DNA of 39,573 nucleotides from the IMG/VR virus record IMGVR_UViG_3300033075_000869. One strand, written 5' to 3'. Below the pieces are notes generated by a model, which saw only the letters and a list, made by a program, of their open reading frames with translations, was not told where the DNA came from and did not search any database. A program made the position numbers and the translations under genes. This document shows positions 6,351 to 23,054 of the stretch, one piece after another. Position 1 is the first letter of the stretch, and each line of letters starts with the position of its first letter. The stretch comes from a virus.

Positions 6351-7382
6351 ATGAACAAAGTCATTGAATCTTGGAAGTGGCCTTCCATTGAAAGTTTTTA
6401 CAACGTTCGTAAAACGATTCAAAAATATGGCGTCGCCGCTGGATCGATTGTTACGTATCGTGCAAAGGTGAAATTGCATGGTGCATGCGCTGCTTTTTCA
6501 ATTGATGGCGATAGTGCCCGTGGTGCTACGCTTCAAACGTATTCTCGAACAGCGATTGTTACACCCGAGAGTGATCCCATGGGATTTTCTAGGTGGATCG
6601 AAAATCGTCGTGATCAATTGTTGTCGTTGCATCAACCTGGAACGAGTATCATTGTATACGGCGAGTGGACCGGTCAAGGTATTCAAAAGGGTGTTGCTGC
6701 GAGTCAAGTCGAACGTTTCTTCGCTGTTTTCGCTGCTCGAGTGTCTCGAGTGGAAGACCCAATGAGTGAGGAATTCATTACTGATCCGGATGAACTTAGG
6801 GTCTACGTTCAGGGTGTTCCGGGTTGTTATGTGTTGCCTTGGTTCAATGACGGTGAAGAATTTGTTGTTCCATGGGAGGCAGATTCTGATTCTTTTGAGA
6901 ATGTTATTTCGAGAATGAACTCTCACGTTGCCGCAATTGAGGCATGTGATCCGTTCGTGTCGAAAACTTTTGGTGTTGCAGGTATCGGCGAAGGTCTCGT
7001 ATTTTATCCAGTGTCAGAACAACATTGTTCATTTGGCGATTTTTCTTATCTCTGCTTCAAGGCAAAGGGTGAGAAACACAAAACGATTGTTCATGCTGCA
7101 CCGGTCCAGGCTGAGCCGACAGTCATTGAAGGTCTTGATGAATTTGTTCGCAATGTGTTGCCGTTGTCTAGGCTCGAACAAGGTGTTCGGGCAACAAACG
7201 ACGGGTCTGACATTGCAATGATGGTCAATTTGGGACCGTTCTTGAAATGGATTGGTCTCGATCTAGAAAAGGAAACCGTGGAAGAGCTACGTGTCTCTGG
7301 TCTTGATCGCAAAGTGGTCTTCAAGAAGTGCAATGAATATGCTCGCAATTGGTTCATGAACGAATCGAGGAAACTGTTATGA
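6351..7382 (+). CDS. RNA ligase, Rnl2 family
   Basis: Motif I KLHG (T4 Rnl2 KIHGTN) and motif IV YGEWTGQGIQKGV (Rnl2 FGEFAGPGIQKNV). Confidence 0.75.
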   Translation: MNKVIESWKWPSIESFYNVRKTIQKYGVAAGSIVTYRAKVKLHGACAAFSIDGDSARGATLQTYSRTAIVTPESDPMGFSRWIENRRDQLLSLHQPGTSIIVYGEWTGQGIQKGVAASQVERFFAVFAARVSRVEDPMSEEFITDPDELRVYVQGVPGCYVLPWFNDGEEFVVPWEADSDSFENVISRMNSHVAAIEACDPFVSKTFGVAGIGEGLVFYPVSEQHCSFGDFSYLCFKAKGEKHKTIVHAAPVQAEPTVIEGLDEFVRNVLPLSRLEQGVRATNDGSDIAMMVNLGPFLKWIGLDLEKETVEELRVSGLDRKVVFKKCNEYARNWFMNESRKLL

Positions 7383-7967: not shown

Positions 7968-8314
7968 AAAAAGGTCTGTATACACCACGTCCTGGAGATC
8001 TGTTCAATTGGCATTATGATCATGATGATTCAAAATGTAAAGATGACGATAAAGTTTGGTCGTCGTCTATGAAATGTTGGGTACTATGCAACGGTATTAA
8101 CATTCTAATCTCACTAACCGAAACTGATATGTGGTGGATTAATAATCAGAGCTTCATCCACGCGCGCGTGGATAAAATTCCGTCGGCCGCCTGGGTAGGC
8201 GTTCCTCGGCGCTGCTTCATCCACGCGCGCGTGGATAAAATGTTTACACCGACTAGTACTCATATCGCCGAGCCTGGCGAGCGAGCTTTGTCTACGCATA
8301 ATGAAATAACATGA
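7964..8314 (+). CDS. family A small paralog with internal 60-bp tandem duplication and aberrant C-terminus (possibly decaying)
   Basis: FIHARVDK is encoded twice by duplicated palindromic DNA. The C-terminus lacks the family's HPR motif. Confidence 0.45.
   Translation: MKKGLYTPRPGDLFNWHYDHDDSKCKDDDKVWSSSMKCWVLCNGINILISLTETDMWWINNQSFIHARVDKIPSAAWVGVPRRCFIHARVDKMFTPTSTHIAEPGERALSTHNEIT
8153..8238. repeat. Tandem direct repeat of TTCATCCACGCGCGCGTGGATAAAAT (2 copies, 34-bp GC-rich spacer), each holding a perfect 18-bp palindrome ATCCACGCGCGCGTGGAT
   Basis: Exact 26-mer at 8153-8178 and 8213-8238. The palindrome is perfect. The segment is locally GC-rich in an AT-rich genome. Confidence 0.7.
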
Positions 8315-9090
8315 CAACCAAAAATCTATTGACTCGCATGAAAGGCTATGAAGAAGCATCAAGGATGATTCTTCCTGGTCGTTCACCTGTTATTCTCCGT
8401 CTCGACGGAAAGTCGTTCTCAACGTATACTCGTTCCCTGGGAACTTTTAATCACTCATTCGCATGGTTGATGAAAGAAACAGCGGTTGCTGTGTGTAAGC
8501 ATATCCAGGGCGCAACGTTCGCTTACACCCAATCTGACGAAATATCAATTTTGATTCACTCTTATAAGAAGCTGAATTCTGAACCGTGGTTTGAAAACTG
8601 TGTTCAGAAGATGGTTTCTGTTTCGTCTTCAATTGCTGCAGTTACATTTACGTTGGGATCACCACAACTTTTTAAGGATGTGTTGGCCGAACCTCGGGCC
8701 GAGGATGCCCGCCCGGCATATTTTGATGCCCGTGTATTTGTCGTTCCAGAAAATGACGTTGTGAATTATTTCGTCTGGCGTCAACAAGATGCAACACGAA
8801 ATGCAATGTCTATGTGGGCTCGTTCACTTTTCTCAGCGAAAGAGATTCATGGGAAAAACTGGCAACAGATGCGTGAGATGTGTGAAACCCGTGGTGTTAA
8901 GTGGGACGCTCTTTCTCCTCAATTTACACGTGGAACCGGAATATCACGCGTCGATGGTCATTGGACAATCGACGATGAAACGCCACTGTTTACTACGAAC
9001 AGGGACTACATCGCTCGGCATCTCGAACTAGAAGAAGGCTTACGTGAAGCTGTATTACGGCCCACGAGATGGCCCACGTATTACCCGTGA
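8311..9090 (+). CDS. Thg1-like protein (tRNA-His guanylyltransferase family, 3'-5' nucleotidyltransferase)
   Basis: RLDGKSFSTYTR and AYTQSDEISIL motifs typical of the Thg1/TLP palm domain; about 260 aa. Confidence 0.7.
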   Translation: MTTKNLLTRMKGYEEASRMILPGRSPVILRLDGKSFSTYTRSLGTFNHSFAWLMKETAVAVCKHIQGATFAYTQSDEISILIHSYKKLNSEPWFENCVQKMVSVSSSIAAVTFTLGSPQLFKDVLAEPRAEDARPAYFDARVFVVPENDVVNYFVWRQQDATRNAMSMWARSLFSAKEIHGKNWQQMREMCETRGVKWDALSPQFTRGTGISRVDGHWTIDDETPLFTTNRDYIARHLELEEGLREAVLRPTRWPTYYP

Positions 9091-10973: not shown

Positions 10974-11477
10974 ATGTCGTCAAAACTTTTCAAATTGTTG
11001 GGTTACATTTGGTCAGCACCAGTCACGGCGTTTGGCCTATTGTACGTTCTGTTCATGTCACTAATGGGTTGGTATCGTTGGTGGGGAGTTGAAAGTGACG
11101 CGCTAGTCTGGATTGTCAATGTTGAAAAGGCGCCTGATTGGGTCTTGAAACGTTGGGAAAAATGGGGCGGACACACTGTTGGTAACGTTGTCGTTCTGAT
11201 TAAAGATCCGGATGAGAAACACGTTATCTTGACGCATGAACTTGTACACGTTCGTCAATGTATGATTCTAGGTGTGTTTCAGCCAATCATGTATGCGTTG
11301 ATTTACTTGTCAATCAAGACGTCATGCAAGCATAGTGATGCATATTTTGATAATTCATTCGAAATTGATGCACGTCGCGGGTGTGGCCAAACAATTGATA
11401 TTGTTGGCGCACAAAAGAAAAAAGAAGAAGCTGCTAAAAAAGCAGTCGAAGAGGCAGCAAATGCATCCGATCGTTAA
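10974..11477 (+). CDS. membrane protein with HExxH zinc-peptidase-like motif
   Basis: N-terminal TM segment, then THELVHVRQ (HExxH). SD-like AAGAGGG lies 4 nt upstream. Confidence 0.45.
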   Translation: MSSKLFKLLGYIWSAPVTAFGLLYVLFMSLMGWYRWWGVESDALVWIVNVEKAPDWVLKRWEKWGGHTVGNVVVLIKDPDEKHVILTHELVHVRQCMILGVFQPIMYALIYLSIKTSCKHSDAYFDNSFEIDARRGCGQTIDIVGAQKKKEEAAKKAVEEAANASDR

Positions 11478-12285
11478 GAGTGTATTTAGCAACTTTACTG
11501 CAAATTTTGAAGGCAGCGTAAGTCACATGTACTTGGACGTTTTGGGCCTTGTAACTGTTGCTCGAGGAAATCTAATTGATCCGATCACAATGGCACTTGG
11601 TTTGCCTTTTGAACGTAATGGCATTAGAGTTTCAAGAGATGAAATTGCTGCTGAGTGGCGAACAGTTAAGGCACGTCAAGATCTTGCAAAGGTTGGCGCC
11701 CGTTCGTTTAAATCAATTACATCGCTACGCCTGTCGACAAAGGGAATTGATGATCTTGTTATTTCTAAGTTGCTAGAAACAGAAGCATATCTCAAGAAGC
11801 GATTTCCAGAATTTGATACGTGGCCGGCAGATGCTCAACTCGGTGTTCTTAGCATGGCATGGGCGATGGGCGCAGGATTCAAATTCAAGACTTTTGAAGC
11901 TGCAGTTCTAAAACGTGATTTCGTTGGTGCAGCGGCTGCATGCAAAATGAATGAAACCGGTAATCCCGGGTTGATTCCTCGAAATGCAGCCAACAAATTG
12001 CTCTTTTTGAATGCTGCTCGTGTTCTAGAGTCTCCGGAAGCATACAAGATCGAAACGTTGTATTGGCCGGATCGCCTTCCAGATGTTCCGGTGCAAAAGG
12101 AACCTGATCATATCGATGTTACGTTTGTTGATGAAGTTCCACAAGTCGATTCGGGTGATGCTGTTACAAATCCTCGTGTAGATATTGTCGTACCAGAAGA
12201 TACGGGTGTTGTAAAATCACCTGGGCTGTTTGATCTAGTTATGGGATTCTTTAAATTTCTACTTTCACTTCTAGGTAAAAAATGA
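11461..12285 (+). CDS. T4-type (GH24) lysozyme with C-terminal extension ending in an amphipathic/hydrophobic helix
   Basis: FEGSVSHMYLDVLGLVTVARG aligns residue-for-residue with T4 lysozyme E11/D20/T26 ([20 protein letters not shown]). C-terminus GLFDLVMGFFKFLLSLLGKK. ATG 11461 verified. Confidence 0.65.
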   Translation: MHPIVKSVFSNFTANFEGSVSHMYLDVLGLVTVARGNLIDPITMALGLPFERNGIRVSRDEIAAEWRTVKARQDLAKVGARSFKSITSLRLSTKGIDDLVISKLLETEAYLKKRFPEFDTWPADAQLGVLSMAWAMGAGFKFKTFEAAVLKRDFVGAAAACKMNETGNPGLIPRNAANKLLFLNAARVLESPEAYKIETLYWPDRLPDVPVQKEPDHIDVTFVDEVPQVDSGDAVTNPRVDIVVPEDTGVVKSPGLFDLVMGFFKFLLSLLGKK

Positions 12286-13106
12286 TAGACATAAAACTTG
12301 GTGGTTGGCGACCAGATTCTACGCTTGCAGAGCATAATCCCAATGACAATTACATGTTTGATGATCATGAGACAAAAATTCTCTCTGCAGGTTCAAACGT
12401 ATATGATCCTGGCATTGAACACAACGGGATTCTTGATCTTCGAAAGTGGTGTTCACCCGTTGAACACCAGAGTGCTGCTGGGTCTTGTGTTGGCAATGGC
12501 GTCGTTGGTGCTCTAGAATTTCTACAGATTCGAAACGGTCAACCATATCAAGACTTGTCACGCTTGTTCGTATACTACAATTCACGATTGATGCACAAAA
12601 GTCAAGAGAAAGATGAAGGAACTTATATTCATCTTGCTTTTGGAACATTGTCTTCATTGGGTACGTGTTCAGAAGAAAAATGGCCTTATGATCTCACGAA
12701 ATTGTTTATTAGACCGTCATGGGGATCATATCGAGAAGCATATCCTAACAAAATCGACAGTTATTACAGCATCGGTGGCACCGGTCAAACACGAATTGAT
12801 TTTATCAAGCGTGCCCTAAGAGCTCAACACGTTGTTGTGTTCGGAATGATTGTTGATCAAGCATATATGAATTATGCCGGCGGACGAGTTGATATGCCAC
12901 AGAAAACCCGAGTGAATTCTGGAGGGCATTGTCAAGTTATTGTTGGTTATGATGACAATACGCAGTGTTGGATTGTACGAAATTCGTGGGGCACAGGTTG
13001 GGGCGACAAGGGATATGCATATGTTCCATATGCATATCTAGATGCATCTGATGCCAATGATTTTTGGGTTCCCTTTTTGCCCGGTTCGTCAATGGAGAAC
13101 GGTTGA
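12282..13106 (+). CDS. papain-like (C1 family) cysteine peptidase
   Basis: QSAAGSCVGNG (Q...GSCW catalytic Cys), GGHCQVIVGYD (catalytic His) and NSWGTGWGDKGY (papain NSWGTGWGENGY). Confidence 0.75.
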   Translation: MIDIKLGGWRPDSTLAEHNPNDNYMFDDHETKILSAGSNVYDPGIEHNGILDLRKWCSPVEHQSAAGSCVGNGVVGALEFLQIRNGQPYQDLSRLFVYYNSRLMHKSQEKDEGTYIHLAFGTLSSLGTCSEEKWPYDLTKLFIRPSWGSYREAYPNKIDSYYSIGGTGQTRIDFIKRALRAQHVVVFGMIVDQAYMNYAGGRVDMPQKTRVNSGGHCQVIVGYDDNTQCWIVRNSWGTGWGDKGYAYVPYAYLDASDANDFWVPFLPGSSMENG

Positions 13107-13109
13107 GAT

Positions 13110-13436
13110 ATGAAAATGAATAGTCTGCTCATTGAATACGTTAAAACGATCATAGGTGAATTGAAACTTGATCGTGCCTACATAAACAGTCTCATTAGCA
13201 AAAATCCACAACTAACAATAAGTGCTGAACGTGTTGCAAAACAGTGGTTGAAGGATGTAGAATCATATTCAGGCAAGAGACTATCTCCAGGTGAGAAGAA
13301 ATCTATCATGAATTTTTGTATGACACAATATCCAAAGATTCTTAAACAAACCGATAATGACACGATTGAAGCCAATGAAGAGCTTCATTATTTGCTTGAC
13401 TTGAAGTTCTCGGCCCTCAAACTAAGGTTAGAATAA
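13110..13436 (+). CDS. hypothetical protein with N-terminal MKMNSLLIEYVKTIIGE motif
   Basis: ORF of 108 aa. Its N-terminus resembles the shared LxEY(V)..I.E motif. Confidence 0.5.
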   Translation: MKMNSLLIEYVKTIIGELKLDRAYINSLISKNPQLTISAERVAKQWLKDVESYSGKRLSPGEKKSIMNFCMTQYPKILKQTDNDTIEANEELHYLLDLKFSALKLRLE

Positions 13437-13804
13437 TGTTTCGAAAATATACTGCAGTAGCAATTGTCCTAATATCGATAATATTCGTGGGATGCCCACA
13501 GAATCCGGGTGTGACACCACAGCCGCCAGTCGTTACCGACCAAATGTTGTGCCCGGCAGCGTGTGAACATATTGGACCACGTGGTCTAAATTGTGAAGAT
13601 GGCAAGCCAATTGATATGAAAATTGTATGCAAATCAACAGATGATTGTAAAAAGGGAACGTGTGTTGGTAATACATGTCTCGTTTCATGTGAACAGTTTT
13701 GTGTTGATACTGAAAATGTTGGTGTTTGGCTTGATCCTGGCTGTGTTTCCAATATTCATTCATGTTCTGAAATTGAATCTTGTCCGCTAGCTCGACAAAA
13801 GTAA
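13436..13804 (+). CDS. secreted Cys-rich small protein, probable lipoprotein
   Basis: Signal peptide with lipobox-like IFVGC, followed by about 14 Cys in CxxxC / CKxxxDC patterns. Confidence 0.55.
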   Translation: MFRKYTAVAIVLISIIFVGCPQNPGVTPQPPVVTDQMLCPAACEHIGPRGLNCEDGKPIDMKIVCKSTDDCKKGTCVGNTCLVSCEQFCVDTENVGVWLDPGCVSNIHSCSEIESCPLARQK

Positions 13805-13811
13805 AATACAA

Positions 13812-14033
13812 ATGAAACCAAAGCCTTTTCCAAAAGTTTCACTAGATTCAACACGTGTTTATGATCACACAGTGTGTATCGATTATGGGTGGTTTATGGA
13901 ACAACACAATGATGCAGCATGTAAACATGGTCGGGGTGAATGTGAAACATGCGGAACGTCTGGGAGGCGAGATGTGCTTCACCATACAATTGGTGGTCGT
14001 GGTAAAATTGCACGCTTGATGAAGCGATTATGA
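13812..14033 (+). CDS. small Cys/His-rich protein (possible zinc ribbon / truncated HNH-like)
   Basis: CKHGRGECETCG...DVLHHTIGG resembles the CxxC + DHhhP..GG core of HNH, but the protein ends before the second half. Confidence 0.35.
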   Translation: MKPKPFPKVSLDSTRVYDHTVCIDYGWFMEQHNDAACKHGRGECETCGTSGRRDVLHHTIGGRGKIARLMKRL

Positions 14034-14269
14034 AAACACGTCTCAAATTTCATGTATTTCCGGGTGATATTCCTAAACGTAACAAAATTGCGATGATGGA
14101 AAATCAGGATGCTGAACTTGCTATTGAAACATACGGTGGATTGAAAACACAGAAGAAGCGTCGTAAATCATATAAACGAATGATTCTGAGTAAAGAACGC
14201 GCAGTGTTGAAACGTCGAGAACAAAATGAAATCAAAAATTCGACATCTTCTGAAGAATTACGTTACTGA
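14030..14269 (+). CDS. small basic protein
   Basis: K/R-rich 79-aa ORF (KKRRKSYKRMILSKERAVLKRREQ). Confidence 0.4.
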   Translation: MKTRLKFHVFPGDIPKRNKIAMMENQDAELAIETYGGLKTQKKRRKSYKRMILSKERAVLKRREQNEIKNSTSSEELRY

Positions 14270-14759
14270 AATTGTCAAAGGAACCGAAGGTCATACAACG
14301 GGTCTGCTTCAAGGTTCAGTATCGACGTCAGTATATGCAGGTAATGTGCTGCGTGATGAAGAAGAAAATGAAAAGAAACTAAAGCGAGCTGTATGTCTGC
14401 TGGTTAAACATCCATCATTGCCAAATATATACCTTGCTGTTTCCCGCAAAGATGATCCCAACGATATGGGCCTTCCTGGTGGGAAAGTAGACGATACTGA
14501 TGTGTCTCTTGAAGACGCTGCTGCAAGAGAACTTCAAGAAGAAACTGGCTTGATAGCAACACATATTTCAAGTCCTATTTTTGTTCGATCGGCTGATGGT
14601 GAATATACTTGCACCACATTTGCAGCAACAGTTGCTGGGAATATTGAAACAGAAGAATCTGGCGTTGTTCGTTGGGTATCACCTGAAGAACTTGTTGCGG
14701 GTTGTTTTGGTGAATATAATAAGTTGATGTTTAAGAAATTGGGAATCAAATATGAATAA
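14226..14759 (+). CDS. Nudix hydrolase with N-terminal MKSKIRHLLKNYVTEIVKGTE motif
   Basis: Nudix box GGKVDDTDVSLEDAAARELQEETGL, nearly identical to MutT GGKIEMGETPEQAVVRELQEEVGI. Confidence 0.75.
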   Translation: MKSKIRHLLKNYVTEIVKGTEGHTTGLLQGSVSTSVYAGNVLRDEEENEKKLKRAVCLLVKHPSLPNIYLAVSRKDDPNDMGLPGGKVDDTDVSLEDAAARELQEETGLIATHISSPIFVRSADGEYTCTTFAATVAGNIETEESGVVRWVSPEELVAGCFGEYNKLMFKKLGIKYE

Positions 14760-15153
14760 CGCCAAAAACATTAATGATCGCAAGAAATCAAAGCCAGACA
14801 GAGAGCCTAGATCTCCTAAACCAAAAATCAATATGGAGACTGCGCCTGACGCAATTGTTGATGGTAAACTTGTTGTTCCTGTTGGTACACGAGTTGTTAT
14901 TCCACGTATTCGATCAAATAAGAAGATTCTATCATTTGGTCTCATTGATAGGGTTGAACGTGGCGCTGTGTATGTCTGGGATGAAACTCTAACACAATGG
15001 TTTGTGTTCAAGTTGTCTGATCCTGTTGTTGTGAAAGTATATTCGTTGCCGCTCAAGTCAACTATTGAAGCGACTACAAAACCGGTCGTTGAAGCAGTGT
15101 CTGAAAAACAACTGTCATATGTAATTTCACAAGATGCTTCTTCAGAAACTTGA
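14752..15153 (+). CDS. hypothetical basic protein
   Basis: ORF of 133 aa. It overlaps the convergent protease gene by 80 nt. Confidence 0.45.
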   Translation: MNNAKNINDRKKSKPDREPRSPKPKINMETAPDAIVDGKLVVPVGTRVVIPRIRSNKKILSFGLIDRVERGAVYVWDETLTQWFVFKLSDPVVVKVYSLPLKSTIEATTKPVVEAVSEKQLSYVISQDASSET

Positions 15154-15889
15154 TAAGCTCATCATGATGTATAAAGAATGAAATGTTTGGACCTTGTGGT
15201 GCAACCCAAGAGGCAATTCCAACGAGATTTCCGTCATCATCAAATGCACCGCCACCACTATTACCACGCCATGTTGCAGATGAAATTTGCATTGCATGTG
15301 TAGTGATCTGATCTGGCCCTTTAATACTGCCCCACGAAGTTGAAACAGTACCTTCGCAATATGACCACCATAGGCCAATTGTATGACCTACGATGTGAAC
15401 TCGCGTACCATCTGGTACAGAATCGATTCCTTTTACATTCGCAACTAGGTGACCTCGAGGCGTATCTTTTGCTAGAATCAATGCAAGATCTTGTGTGTGA
15501 CTCACCGCAATAACTGTTCCTCTTCGAACAGATACTGGAAAATTATTTGGTGTTGATAGATTAACATCGCCTTTGACAACATATTGTAGTTCAACACCGA
15601 CGGAATCAAATTCATCAGATTCAATTTCGAATATGCTACCAACAAGTGCTCGACCATACATTTCAACACAGTGATTCGCAGTTAGGATCTTATCATCAGA
15701 AATCCAGACGCCTGTACAATATGGAGAATGATCACCATCACCATCAGTTTTTGTTAGAGCTACAGTTACAGACTTTAGATTTTCAACCAGTGCGACTCGG
15801 CTGGGTTGAACGGGTGGTTGTGTCAATGAACCTTGCATCGCGCAACCAAACAAAACGATTGCCAACAACCACAAGAAAAATTTTTTCAT
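15074..15889 (-). CDS. trypsin-like (S1 family) serine protease, lipoprotein
   Basis: Signal peptide MKKFFLWLLAIVLFGC (lipobox LFGC). Catalytic His in TANHC, Asp in DLALI, Ser in GNSGGGAF. AAGAGG sits 9 nt upstream of the ATG. Confidence 0.8.
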   Translation of the reverse strand: MKKFFLWLLAIVLFGCAMQGSLTQPPVQPSRVALVENLKSVTVALTKTDGDGDHSPYCTGVWISDDKILTANHCVEMYGRALVGSIFEIESDEFDSVGVELQYVVKGDVNLSTPNNFPVSVRRGTVIAVSHTQDLALILAKDTPRGHLVANVKGIDSVPDGTRVHIVGHTIGLWWSYCEGTVSTSWGSIKGPDQITTHAMQISSATWRGNSGGGAFDDDGNLVGIASWVAPQGPNISFFIHHDELIKFLKKHLVKLHMTVVFQTLLQRPVL

Positions 15890-22796: not shown

Positions 22797-23054
22797 ATGA
22801 CTTTGTATGCAAAAACGCTAGGAATGAACAGCGCATATATGTTTTTTGCTACGATTGCTTGTATTGCATTGCTGCTAATGATGTTGTTCAGCTGTACGTA
22901 CAAGTCAATGGTGATTGCAATAATTGCAGCTTTGGTAGGACTTATCTGTCTGACGTCCTTTGCTAAATTTGGTGCAAAACTTCTTTATGAAGAACAACTT
23001 CAAAAAATTCATGAAGTTGTAGCACTTTACAATAGGAAACATCATAAGGAATAG
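22797..23054 (+). CDS. small membrane protein (start uncertain; track ORF from TTG 22638)
   Basis: Two hydrophobic helices. The first ATG is at 22797. The upstream in-frame region also looks coding and may use a non-ATG start. Confidence 0.4.
   Translation: MTLYAKTLGMNSAYMFFATIACIALLLMMLFSCTYKSMVIAIIAALVGLICLTSFAKFGAKLLYEEQLQKIHEVVALYNRKHHKE

Follow-up and report, generated by a model that had tools for sequence, protein, structure and literature searches.

The window analysed here is a metagenomic contig of 39,573 bp (IMG/VR record IMGVR_UViG_3300033075_000869) in which two open reading frames (ORFs) were followed up. ORF A encodes a small cysteine-rich lipoprotein and lies one gene downstream of a papain-family (C1) cysteine peptidase. 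ORF B, on the opposite strand, encodes an S1 serine protease that also carries a lipoprotein signal. A first-pass annotation made from the sequence alone had placed both ORFs correctly. The reading favoured here, with a probability of about 0.5, is that ORF A would be a periplasmic, membrane-anchored partner of a C1 lysis peptidase and that ORF B would be a separate anchored protease of the envelope. No description of a C1 peptidase/Cys-rich lipoprotein pair was found in the literature searched, and this conserved pair is a more interesting result than the role in superinfection exclusion that had been proposed for the two genes.

The ORFs, their motifs and folds, their conservation and their gene linkage were observed directly. 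A profile search of 1.84 billion cluster representatives places ORF A in an uncharacterised family of at least 307 representatives, most of them lipoproteins. At 14 of 15 independent loci seeded with the lipoprotein (loci are numbered with the prefix L), a C1 peptidase is encoded within one gene of it, in three arrangements. The clade of the window shows the same order in all eight of its lineages: an exonuclease (exo), a transmembrane (TM) protein with an HExxH motif (HExxH-TM), a variable slot that can hold a muramidase, the C1 peptidase, a protein of ~108 residues (p108), the lipoprotein, and a NUDIX protein. More distant relatives of ORF A retain the C1 peptidase as their sole conserved neighbour. 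At L016 and L017 the peptidase and lipoprotein genes overlap, on a phage contig with PolA and DnaB and no muramidase. At L018/L019 and L015 the slot lacks a muramidase, and at L014, L100 and L042 the order is inverted, with the lipoprotein ahead of the peptidase. A further overlapping C1/Cys-lipoprotein pair stands at the edge of the L101 contig, where it adjoins bacterial genes for a xanthine-dehydrogenase-family protein, an ABC-binding protein and a glyoxalase. As these are ordinary bacterial genes, the pair is not strictly limited to recognisable phage DNA. The idea that ORF A goes with the endolysin itself was considered and dropped, since the distant loci keep the C1 link without a muramidase.

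Lipoprotein signals were identified with a hand-coded rule of the PROSITE PS51257 type, which requires a lysine or arginine within the first seven residues, an uncharged h-region, [AGS]-C, and a cysteine at position 15-35. In a six-frame scan of the window, 5 of 1005 candidate starts pass this rule, among them ORF A, ORF B and one antisense artefact of ORF A. The signal of ORF A (IVLISIIFVGC) passes with Cys20, whose codon is at 13493-13495. Residues 1-20 comprise the signal peptide and the lipobox IFVG/C, residues 26-36 are a conserved proline-rich segment, VTPQPPVVTDQ, and residues ~37-118 form a disulfide-rich domain with 12 cysteines. Across an alignment of 13 homologues G19-C20 and 12 further cysteines are invariant, as are P30, P31, D35 and Q36 of the proline-rich segment. 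The strict lipobox rule is passed by 106 of the best 150 of the 307 relatives, and a relaxed rule by 134 of the same 150. Because the signal is conserved throughout the families of both ORF A and ORF B, it is not a matter of chance, and both proteins are confidently predicted to be lipoproteins. The first-pass annotation had reached the same view of both, and passage of the rule together with family-wide conservation upholds it.

All 307 relatives of ORF A are stand-alone proteins of 55-180 residues sharing the core C..AC..L..LGC.EG.P … FC..T…G.WL.P.C……C..I..C. Mature cysteines number between 4 and 15, most commonly 12 or 8, and the short members lack the central cysteine hairpin. ORF A itself has 13 cysteines, the lipobox Cys20 and 12 in the mature protein, and not the 14 counted earlier. 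The earlier label of an EGF/toxin-like protein had been attached to the string CKSTDDCKKGTCVGNTCLVSCEQFC, which is ORF A residues 65-89. This label does not hold, as ORF A matches no EGF or toxin profile and has no such fold, and the quoted hairpin is an optional insert missing from many members of the family. More broadly, ORF A has no Pfam match even at E<=1, none in PHROG, NCBIfam or PADLOC, no fold match among solved structures in the PDB, and no tblastn match among 50,697 phage records. The best of five AlphaFold2 models, built from the family alignment, has a predicted local distance difference test (pLDDT) score above 90 over most of residues ~41-118, the other four being weaker. Confidence falls below 50 over residues 1-30 and is ~75 over residues 31-40. 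Since the proline-rich segment has invariant residues yet low model confidence, we infer that VTPQPPVVTDQ may be a linear motif that becomes ordered upon binding of a partner.

The C1 peptidase scores 64 bits against PF00112 (cut-off 20.7). Its catalytic residues Q63, C69, H216 and N234 are invariant in the alignment, in which all homologues lack a signal peptide, and the enzyme is predicted to be catalytically intact. Its start codon overlaps the stop codon of the muramidase-like gene by 4 nt. The latter product has a proline-rich linker followed by a hydrophobic, cationic C-terminal helix, GLFDLVMGFFKFLLSLLGKK. It matches the endolysin family phrog_7 (7.6e-07) and, by hhalign, the PF00959 lysozymes found in the same slot at other loci (E 7e-05, probability 63%). 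The slot is occupied by this divergent GH24-like protein in the window and L001, by a PF00959 lysozyme in L006, L009, L010 and L011, by a GH25 protein in L003, and by a 394-residue protein of unknown type in L013. All of the slot proteins end with a proline-rich linker and a similar hydrophobic, cationic helix (…FFGKGK-like), which could be a membrane anchor or a peptide that permeabilises the outer membrane. As the catalytic domains swap while the linker and helix stay, the position appears to be an endolysin slot.

A related arrangement is found in the Alicyclobacillus phage MMB025 (PV686781.1), where a domain homologous to the C1 peptidase (27% identity, E 4e-14) lies at the N-terminus of CDS0095, a 753-residue protein annotated as an endolysin. 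CDS0095 also contains Big_1, Rv2525c-type glycoside-hydrolase-like and PG_binding_1 domains, and it is encoded after the tail fibres, the canonical post-tail position. In both phages a homologous Peptidase_C1 domain would work alongside a glycoside-hydrolase-like domain. The MMB025 endolysin differs in being a single fused polypeptide with a peptidoglycan-binding domain from a phage with a Gram-positive host. No lipoprotein partner is seen in its annotation, and the endolysin label is an automated one. This domain fusion, together with translational coupling of the window peptidase to the muramidase, suggests a role for the C1 peptidase in envelope breakdown. The 4-nt overlap, the non-orthologous replacement in the slot and the MMB025 fusion all link the peptidase to lysis, and in the clade of the window the C1/lipoprotein pair probably lies within a lysis module. 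A related C1 peptidase (32% identity) is also encoded by a cultured phage, the 322 kb Burkholderia jumbo phage FLC9, as gp163 (L141), where it is a lone plus-strand gene among hypothetical genes on the minus strand.

Two further proteins of the module have less certain roles. HExxH-TM is its best-conserved gene product, with 94% identity to the L001 protein and 38-60% to the others, and has an invariant HExxH motif (THELVHVRQ) and the motif N(S/P)FEIDARR. Its matches are all weak, namely phrog_15610 'protease' (3e-4), a XopG-type zincin (0.0036) and Thermus phage MN1, and it could be an unusual holin or, alternatively, a small metallopeptidase of the membrane. The gene for p108 ends with a 1-nt overlap of the ORF A start. 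It is internally duplicated to 214 residues in L006 and is absent from L015, L016 and L101. As the phiKZ lysis cassette includes a small cytoplasmic regulator (PMC12894885), p108 offers a possible parallel and could be a cytoplasmic regulator itself.

In the proposed mechanism, the Sec pathway would export ORF A, and, as the lipobox implies, Cys20 would be lipidated and signal peptidase II would cleave the precursor. The anchored protein would face the periplasm, sitting on the outer membrane in a host that follows the enterobacterial +2 sorting rule, and its 12 conserved cysteines could pair into as many as six disulfides within a compact domain. So positioned, ORF A would await the C1 peptidase in the periplasm and bind enzyme arriving through holin lesions at lysis or from outside the cell. 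In the favoured mode, it would hold the peptidase in check or set its timing as a cognate inhibitor or immunity protein, with VTPQPPVVTDQ (PPVV-TDQ) docking in the active-site cleft. Papain-type S2 pockets suit a hydrophobic P2 residue. In an alternative mode, ORF A would act as a tether or activator, gathering the peptidase at the outer membrane so that links between membrane and wall are cut there. ORF B would be an active, PDZ-less, HtrA-like protease, transcribed independently, anchored in the same compartment as ORF A, and cleaving envelope proteins. The localisation, disulfides, binding and every function in this scheme we infer from sequence, fold and gene context.

The inhibitor proposal is made because a signal-less enzyme adjoins a small exported lipoprotein, which is the topology of periplasmic effector-immunity pairs. 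The linkage kept at 14 of 15 loci, between a hydrolase without a signal and a small exported protein, is what would be expected of an enzyme and its immunity protein. One such pair is Tse1/Tsi1 of a type VI secretion system (T6SS), in which a papain-like peptidase acts in the periplasm (PMC3391265). As with Tse1/Tsi1, a cysteine peptidase without a signal peptide stands beside, and often overlaps, a small exported periplasmic protein of the producer, and, as in effector-immunity pairs, the linkage survives changes in gene order. Unlike Tse1/Tsi1, however, the present pair is found in a phage setting without a T6SS or other delivery system, and the peptidase belongs to C1 and not to NlpC/P60. 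ORF A also resembles known immunity proteins in neither sequence nor fold, and inhibition here is putative.

A phage precedent is provided by the Spackle (Sp) protein of T4, which inhibits gp5, the tail lysozyme of that same phage, in the periplasm. Both Spackle and, putatively, ORF A are small phage proteins of the periplasm aimed at a wall-degrading enzyme of the same phage, and this likeness means that the inhibitor mode can be reconciled with an exclusion phenotype. Unlike ORF A, Spackle is not a lipoprotein, targets a lysozyme and is not encoded beside its target, and the two have no sequence relationship. In contrast to gp5, the window peptidase is at most a putative virion protein. In favour of the inhibitor mode, most C1 relatives work without a lipoprotein; in favour of the tether mode, ORF A has a spanin-like position in the module.

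Several observations weigh against the reading of ORF A as a partner of a lysis peptidase. The sole exception among the 15 loci, L103, has no C1 peptidase within 5 kb. In the reverse direction, the lipoprotein was present at only 12 of 80 viral loci seeded with the C1 peptidase, a count with which a homology-free scan for a lipobox and cysteines agrees. It was found at eight of the nine closest of these loci, the ninth stopping at a contig edge. Since most of its relatives occur without the lipoprotein, the peptidase would not depend on it. The window muramidase has no Pfam or PDB match, and its identity derives from the weak scores given above, and no holin was identified. The module is surrounded by genes of nucleic-acid metabolism (the exonuclease, NUDIX and an ADP-ribosylglycohydrolase) and not by late or structural genes, and the label of a lysis cassette is further weakened because the L016 pair sits among replication genes. 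Binding between ORF A and the peptidase is a prediction from context, and nothing in the sequences separates the inhibitor from the tether mode. The two proteins are made in different compartments, and contact requires membrane permeabilisation or delivery from outside. As for the second protein, ORF B is missing near the module in L003 and L013, is present without the module in L005 and L007, and has no feature that would point to its substrate.

ORF B carries the lipobox LFG/C with Cys16, and its signal LWLLAIVLFGC passes the lipobox rule. Its protease region scores above the gathering cut-off for two Pfam trypsin domains, PF13365 (8.2e-17, 62.7 bits against 27.6) and PF00089 (3.8e-13, 50.2 bits against 20.6). 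A GNSGG motif is present, and the triad of H73 (codon 15671-15673), D134 (15488-15490) and S211 (15257-15259) is invariant in 30 homologues, most of which have an L-x-G-C(C) lipobox. With two domains above the gathering score and an invariant triad, the earlier description of ORF B as a complete S1 protease is borne out. Among proteins of solved structure, HtrA/DegP protease domains are nearest to it in sequence (profile E 1e-16). Its AlphaFold2 model (pLDDT 87.5) has Deg1, MarP, DegQ, HtrA1 and DegP as top Foldseek matches and also matches MamO and V8, at 15-21% identity. No PDZ domain was found with Pfam, the protein ending ~20 residues past the protease domain, and all curated HtrA models were missed (TIGR02037, 32 bits against a cut-off of 416; DegP, 21 against 720). 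Because it lacks a PDZ domain and scores far below these cut-offs, ORF B has an HtrA-like fold but falls outside the HtrA family, and by its sequence it belongs to no curated family. PADLOC matches to RT-Protease and LmuA were rejected as generic trypsin-domain similarity and not system membership, and tblastn against GenBank phage records returned a single weak partial match.

A first search found 88 relatives of ORF B, of which 44 pass the strict lipobox rule and most others have a signal peptide and a cysteine. The family occurs on 36 IMG/VR contigs, the longest being 369 kb, and a lipobox is present in nearly all cases. In all seven lineages with reliable strand data (the window, L001/L002, L005, L006, L007, L010 and L011), ORF B is the lone gene on the opposite strand. 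A crude and noisy ORF-based analysis of 28 IMG/VR loci found its downstream neighbour to be convergent in ~21; the conclusions on strand rest mainly on the loci with proper gene calls. As the only gene on its strand among its neighbours, ORF B appears to form its own transcription unit. In a scan of 10.6-16.5 kb, sigma-70 promoters and terminators were as numerous as expected from shuffled sequence, and the region upstream of ORF B had none; a k-mer search comparing its upstream region with other intergenic regions found AT-rich shared words only. The non-conserved 3' end of ORF B overlaps a convergent gene for a 133-residue protein by 80 nt (15074-15153), and its counterpart in L001 has an overlap of 68 nt (11368-11435). 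As this overlap is conserved, antisense interplay is possible.

In five of the eight lineages of the clade, ORF B is found no more than a few kb from the C1/lipoprotein module. L013, whose 17.6 kb locus gave no S1 protease match, encodes an additional lipoprotein of 143 residues, with the lipobox LVTCC and a matrixin-type HEVGHALGRHH motif (PF00413, 9e-07). This M10-like gene is an insertion that separates the HExxH-TM gene from the muramidase slot. The presence of an unrelated metzincin lipoprotein in the module hints that an anchored protease is a recurrent accessory of it. Possible roles for ORF B include cleavage of links between outer membrane and wall, receptor cleavage and quality control.

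Superinfection exclusion, the function first suggested for both genes, would have ORF A masking an outer-membrane receptor from the periplasm in the manner of Llp or Cor, and ORF B clipping receptors or surface proteins, both blocking superinfection and stopping progeny from adsorbing to debris. This is an unlikely account. Both proteins are predicted lipoproteins, and T5 Llp is itself a small periplasmic lipoprotein, with 61 residues in its mature form and a single disulfide, whose gene adjoins that for the receptor-binding protein pb5 (PMC9586334). ORF A resembles Llp and Cor in being a small phage lipoprotein, putatively on the periplasmic side of the outer membrane and stabilised by disulfides. 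The independent orientation of ORF B is compatible with early, moron-like expression, and receptor clipping by an anchored protease is one possible activity. However, ORF A has 103 mature residues and 12 cysteines, shares no similarity with Llp and has a C1 peptidase as its neighbour. Neither ORF A nor ORF B resembles any exclusion family in PHROG, Pfam or PADLOC, and neither gene adjoins a recognisable tail or receptor-binding protein gene, no such match lying within 10 kb, unlike llp beside pb5 (PMC9586334). Retention of the C1 neighbour across very divergent phages (14 of 15 loci) is unexpected for a receptor-specific masking factor, and the pair also occurs beside ordinary bacterial genes. 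With no exclusion-family match, no tail neighbour and a C1 peptidase as the conserved neighbour, the claim of exclusion or receptor masking was not sustained. The least probable of the readings considered treats ORF A as a functional analogue of o-spanins, or another outer-membrane disruptor. It would act at the final stage of lysis without involving the C1 peptidase, and its partner in the inner membrane might be the membrane-anchored muramidase or the two-TM protein. The window contains no canonical spanin pair, and ORF A shares with o-spanins such as Rz1 and PseT.2 a lipoprotein signal, a proline-rich N-terminal region and a gene downstream of the endolysin, in the usual spanin position at the downstream end of a muramidase-containing module (PMC6139136). 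Unlike them, it has no adjacent or overlapping i-spanin partner, as p108, p73, p79 and the overlapping frames have no TM segment. The spanins of this phage may lie elsewhere, as the window is 39.6 kb of a genome. Moreover, across 526 systems o-spanins have 0-4 cysteines in a short, largely unstructured periplasmic domain (PMC6139136), whereas ORF A has 12 and is modelled by AlphaFold2 as a compact, folded, disulfide-rich domain and not an extended one. Its linkage follows the C1 peptidase, and not the endolysin, even where a muramidase is lacking.

For ORF B, a rival reading is that it mimics DegP/HtrA as a quality-control protease, keeping the periplasm functional during a long jumbo-phage infection, beside the phage GroEL, and leaving the envelope itself unharmed. 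Its nearest relatives in sequence and fold are indeed HtrA/Deg proteases, and the phage also encodes a chaperonin. ORF B has the PA-clan fold, catalytic triad, GNSGG motif and putative envelope location of HtrA, DegP, DegQ and MarP, and MarP is likewise tethered to the membrane without a PDZ domain. HtrA proteases use PDZ domains for substrate sensing and oligomerisation, and ORF B lacks these. Its scores for the NCBIfam HtrA models are far below their cut-offs, and it differs from all four proteins in its low identity (15-21%), its phage origin and its lipid anchor in place of a soluble or TM-anchored form. The fold alone is no sign of a chaperone-protease role, because MarP, V8 and MamO score like HtrAs. 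L013 has an unrelated metzincin lipoprotein in the same neighbourhood. A role in quality control is thus improbable, on a par with exclusion. ORF B as a separate anchored envelope protease, and ORF A as partner of the C1 peptidase, remain the preferred reading.

Table 1. Positions of the features discussed
Feature	Locus	Position	Strand	Description
ORF A	window	13436..13804	+	122 aa Cys-rich predicted lipoprotein; begins MFRKYTAVAIVLISIIFVGC
C1 (papain-family) cysteine peptidase	window	12282..13106	+	274 aa; PF00112 2.6e-17
ORF B	window	15074..15889	-	271 aa predicted lipoprotein, S1 (PA-clan) serine protease; begins MKKFFLWLLAIVLFGC
HExxH-TM protein	window	10974..11477	+	167 aa, two predicted TM helices; first gene of the module
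Muramidase-like protein	window	11461..12285	+	274 aa; divergent GH24-type E-x8-D-x5-T motif
p108	window	13110..13436	+	small protein without TM segment or signal peptide, kept between C1 peptidase and ORF A
Gene convergent with ORF B	window	14752-15153		133 aa
Slot gene	L003	7924-8829		
Slot gene	L006	13918-14574	-	
Slot gene	L009	5471-6160		
Slot gene	L010	676-1311		
Slot gene	L011	8070-8660		
Slot gene	L013	7272-8456		
Duplicated p108	L006	12435-13079	-	214 aa
C1/Cys-lipoprotein pair	L101	100-1232		overlapping genes at contig edge
gp163 of phage FLC9	L141	3896-4687		related C1 peptidase
M10-like lipoprotein	L013	5374-5805	+	143 aa
Thg1-type enzyme	window	8311-9090	+	tRNA-His guanylyltransferase; phrog_4717 2.4e-69
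RNA ligase	window	6351-7382	+	
ORF 3' of GroEL	window	22797-23054	+	85 aa
Vault-type protein	window	32914-35520	-	868 aa

The window encodes an RNA ligase, Thg1, a 5'-3' exonuclease and NUDIX genes, as well as an ADP-ribosylglycohydrolase (ARH), an AAA ATPase, UvdE and GroEL. Genes neighbouring the two ORFs match PHROG families, and IMG/VR contigs syntenic with the window reach 309 kb; both observations support the earlier statement that ORF A and ORF B are phage-encoded. From its gene content and these long syntenic contigs, the window is judged to be part of an uncultured large phage, probably a jumbo phage. Megablast of window positions 11-17 kb against GenBank phages gave no matches, and a tblastn search with the window GroEL gave matches that were all below 50% identity and included cellular GroELs, with no close cultured relative among them. 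That the host has an oxidising periplasm is suggested by the lipoboxes, by the 12 cysteines presumably held in disulfides, and by a muramidase in which no wall-binding domain is recognised. A profile scan of genome contigs with a narrow ORF A alignment yielded one match, L015 (JBBAUR010000009.1), an 89 kb contig binned in a metagenome-assembled genome of Bdellovibrionota. Its gene content (exo, HExxH-TM, C1 peptidase, Cys-lipoprotein and NUDIX) is phage-like, and it may be a mis-binned phage contig or, at most, a weak hint of the host.

Some other genes of the window were also noted. The Thg1-type tRNA-His guanylyltransferase and the RNA ligase may form a tRNA repair set. The 868-residue protein encoded on the minus strand has a Major Vault Protein shoulder (PF11978, 1.5e-30), Vault repeats and an SPFH/Band-7 domain, which is unusual in a phage. 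The local G+C content is ~0.50 compared with ~0.40, and copies of 868-955 residues, identical or nearly so, occur on other metagenomic contigs. Just 3' of GroEL, an ORF of 85 residues has two to three hydrophobic segments and a highly charged C-terminus, making it holin-like, and it passes the lipobox rule twice.

A wider interpretation, offered tentatively and at well below even odds, is that the C1 peptidase and lipoprotein constitute an unrecognised two-component envelope system that is widespread among large environmental phages and occurs now and then in bacteria. This could serve either for spanin-independent disruption of the outer membrane or as a pair of lysin and anti-lysin immunity. 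In the disruption version, the lipoprotein would be the outer-membrane receptor or activator of a protease-based route. In the immunity version, infected cells would be protected from the peptidase released by lysed neighbours. The lipoprotein would contribute a fold without a match among solved structures, and a third component that recurs would be an anchored protease, of type S1 or, in one lineage, M10.

On the usual view, a phage that lyses a Gram-negative host requires a holin, an endolysin, and either a spanin or a disruptin, yet in a sizeable minority of phages no outer-membrane step can be recognised. The module described here points to proteolysis as an additional part of envelope breakdown in some large phages. 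It combines an HExxH protein of the membrane with a muramidase that can be exchanged, a papain-type peptidase and a dedicated lipoprotein of the periplasm, and an anchored serine protease is encoded close by. The C1 peptidases are flagged as candidate components of enzybiotics, and FLC9 could give an experimental entry point to them. As an inhibitor, ORF A would represent a new class of disulfide-rich cysteine-protease inhibitor and a case in which a phage has 'immunity' to the lysin that it encodes. As a tether, it would point to a new mechanism of outer-membrane disruption. In either mode, an uncharacterised family of more than 300 sequence clusters would gain a testable partner.

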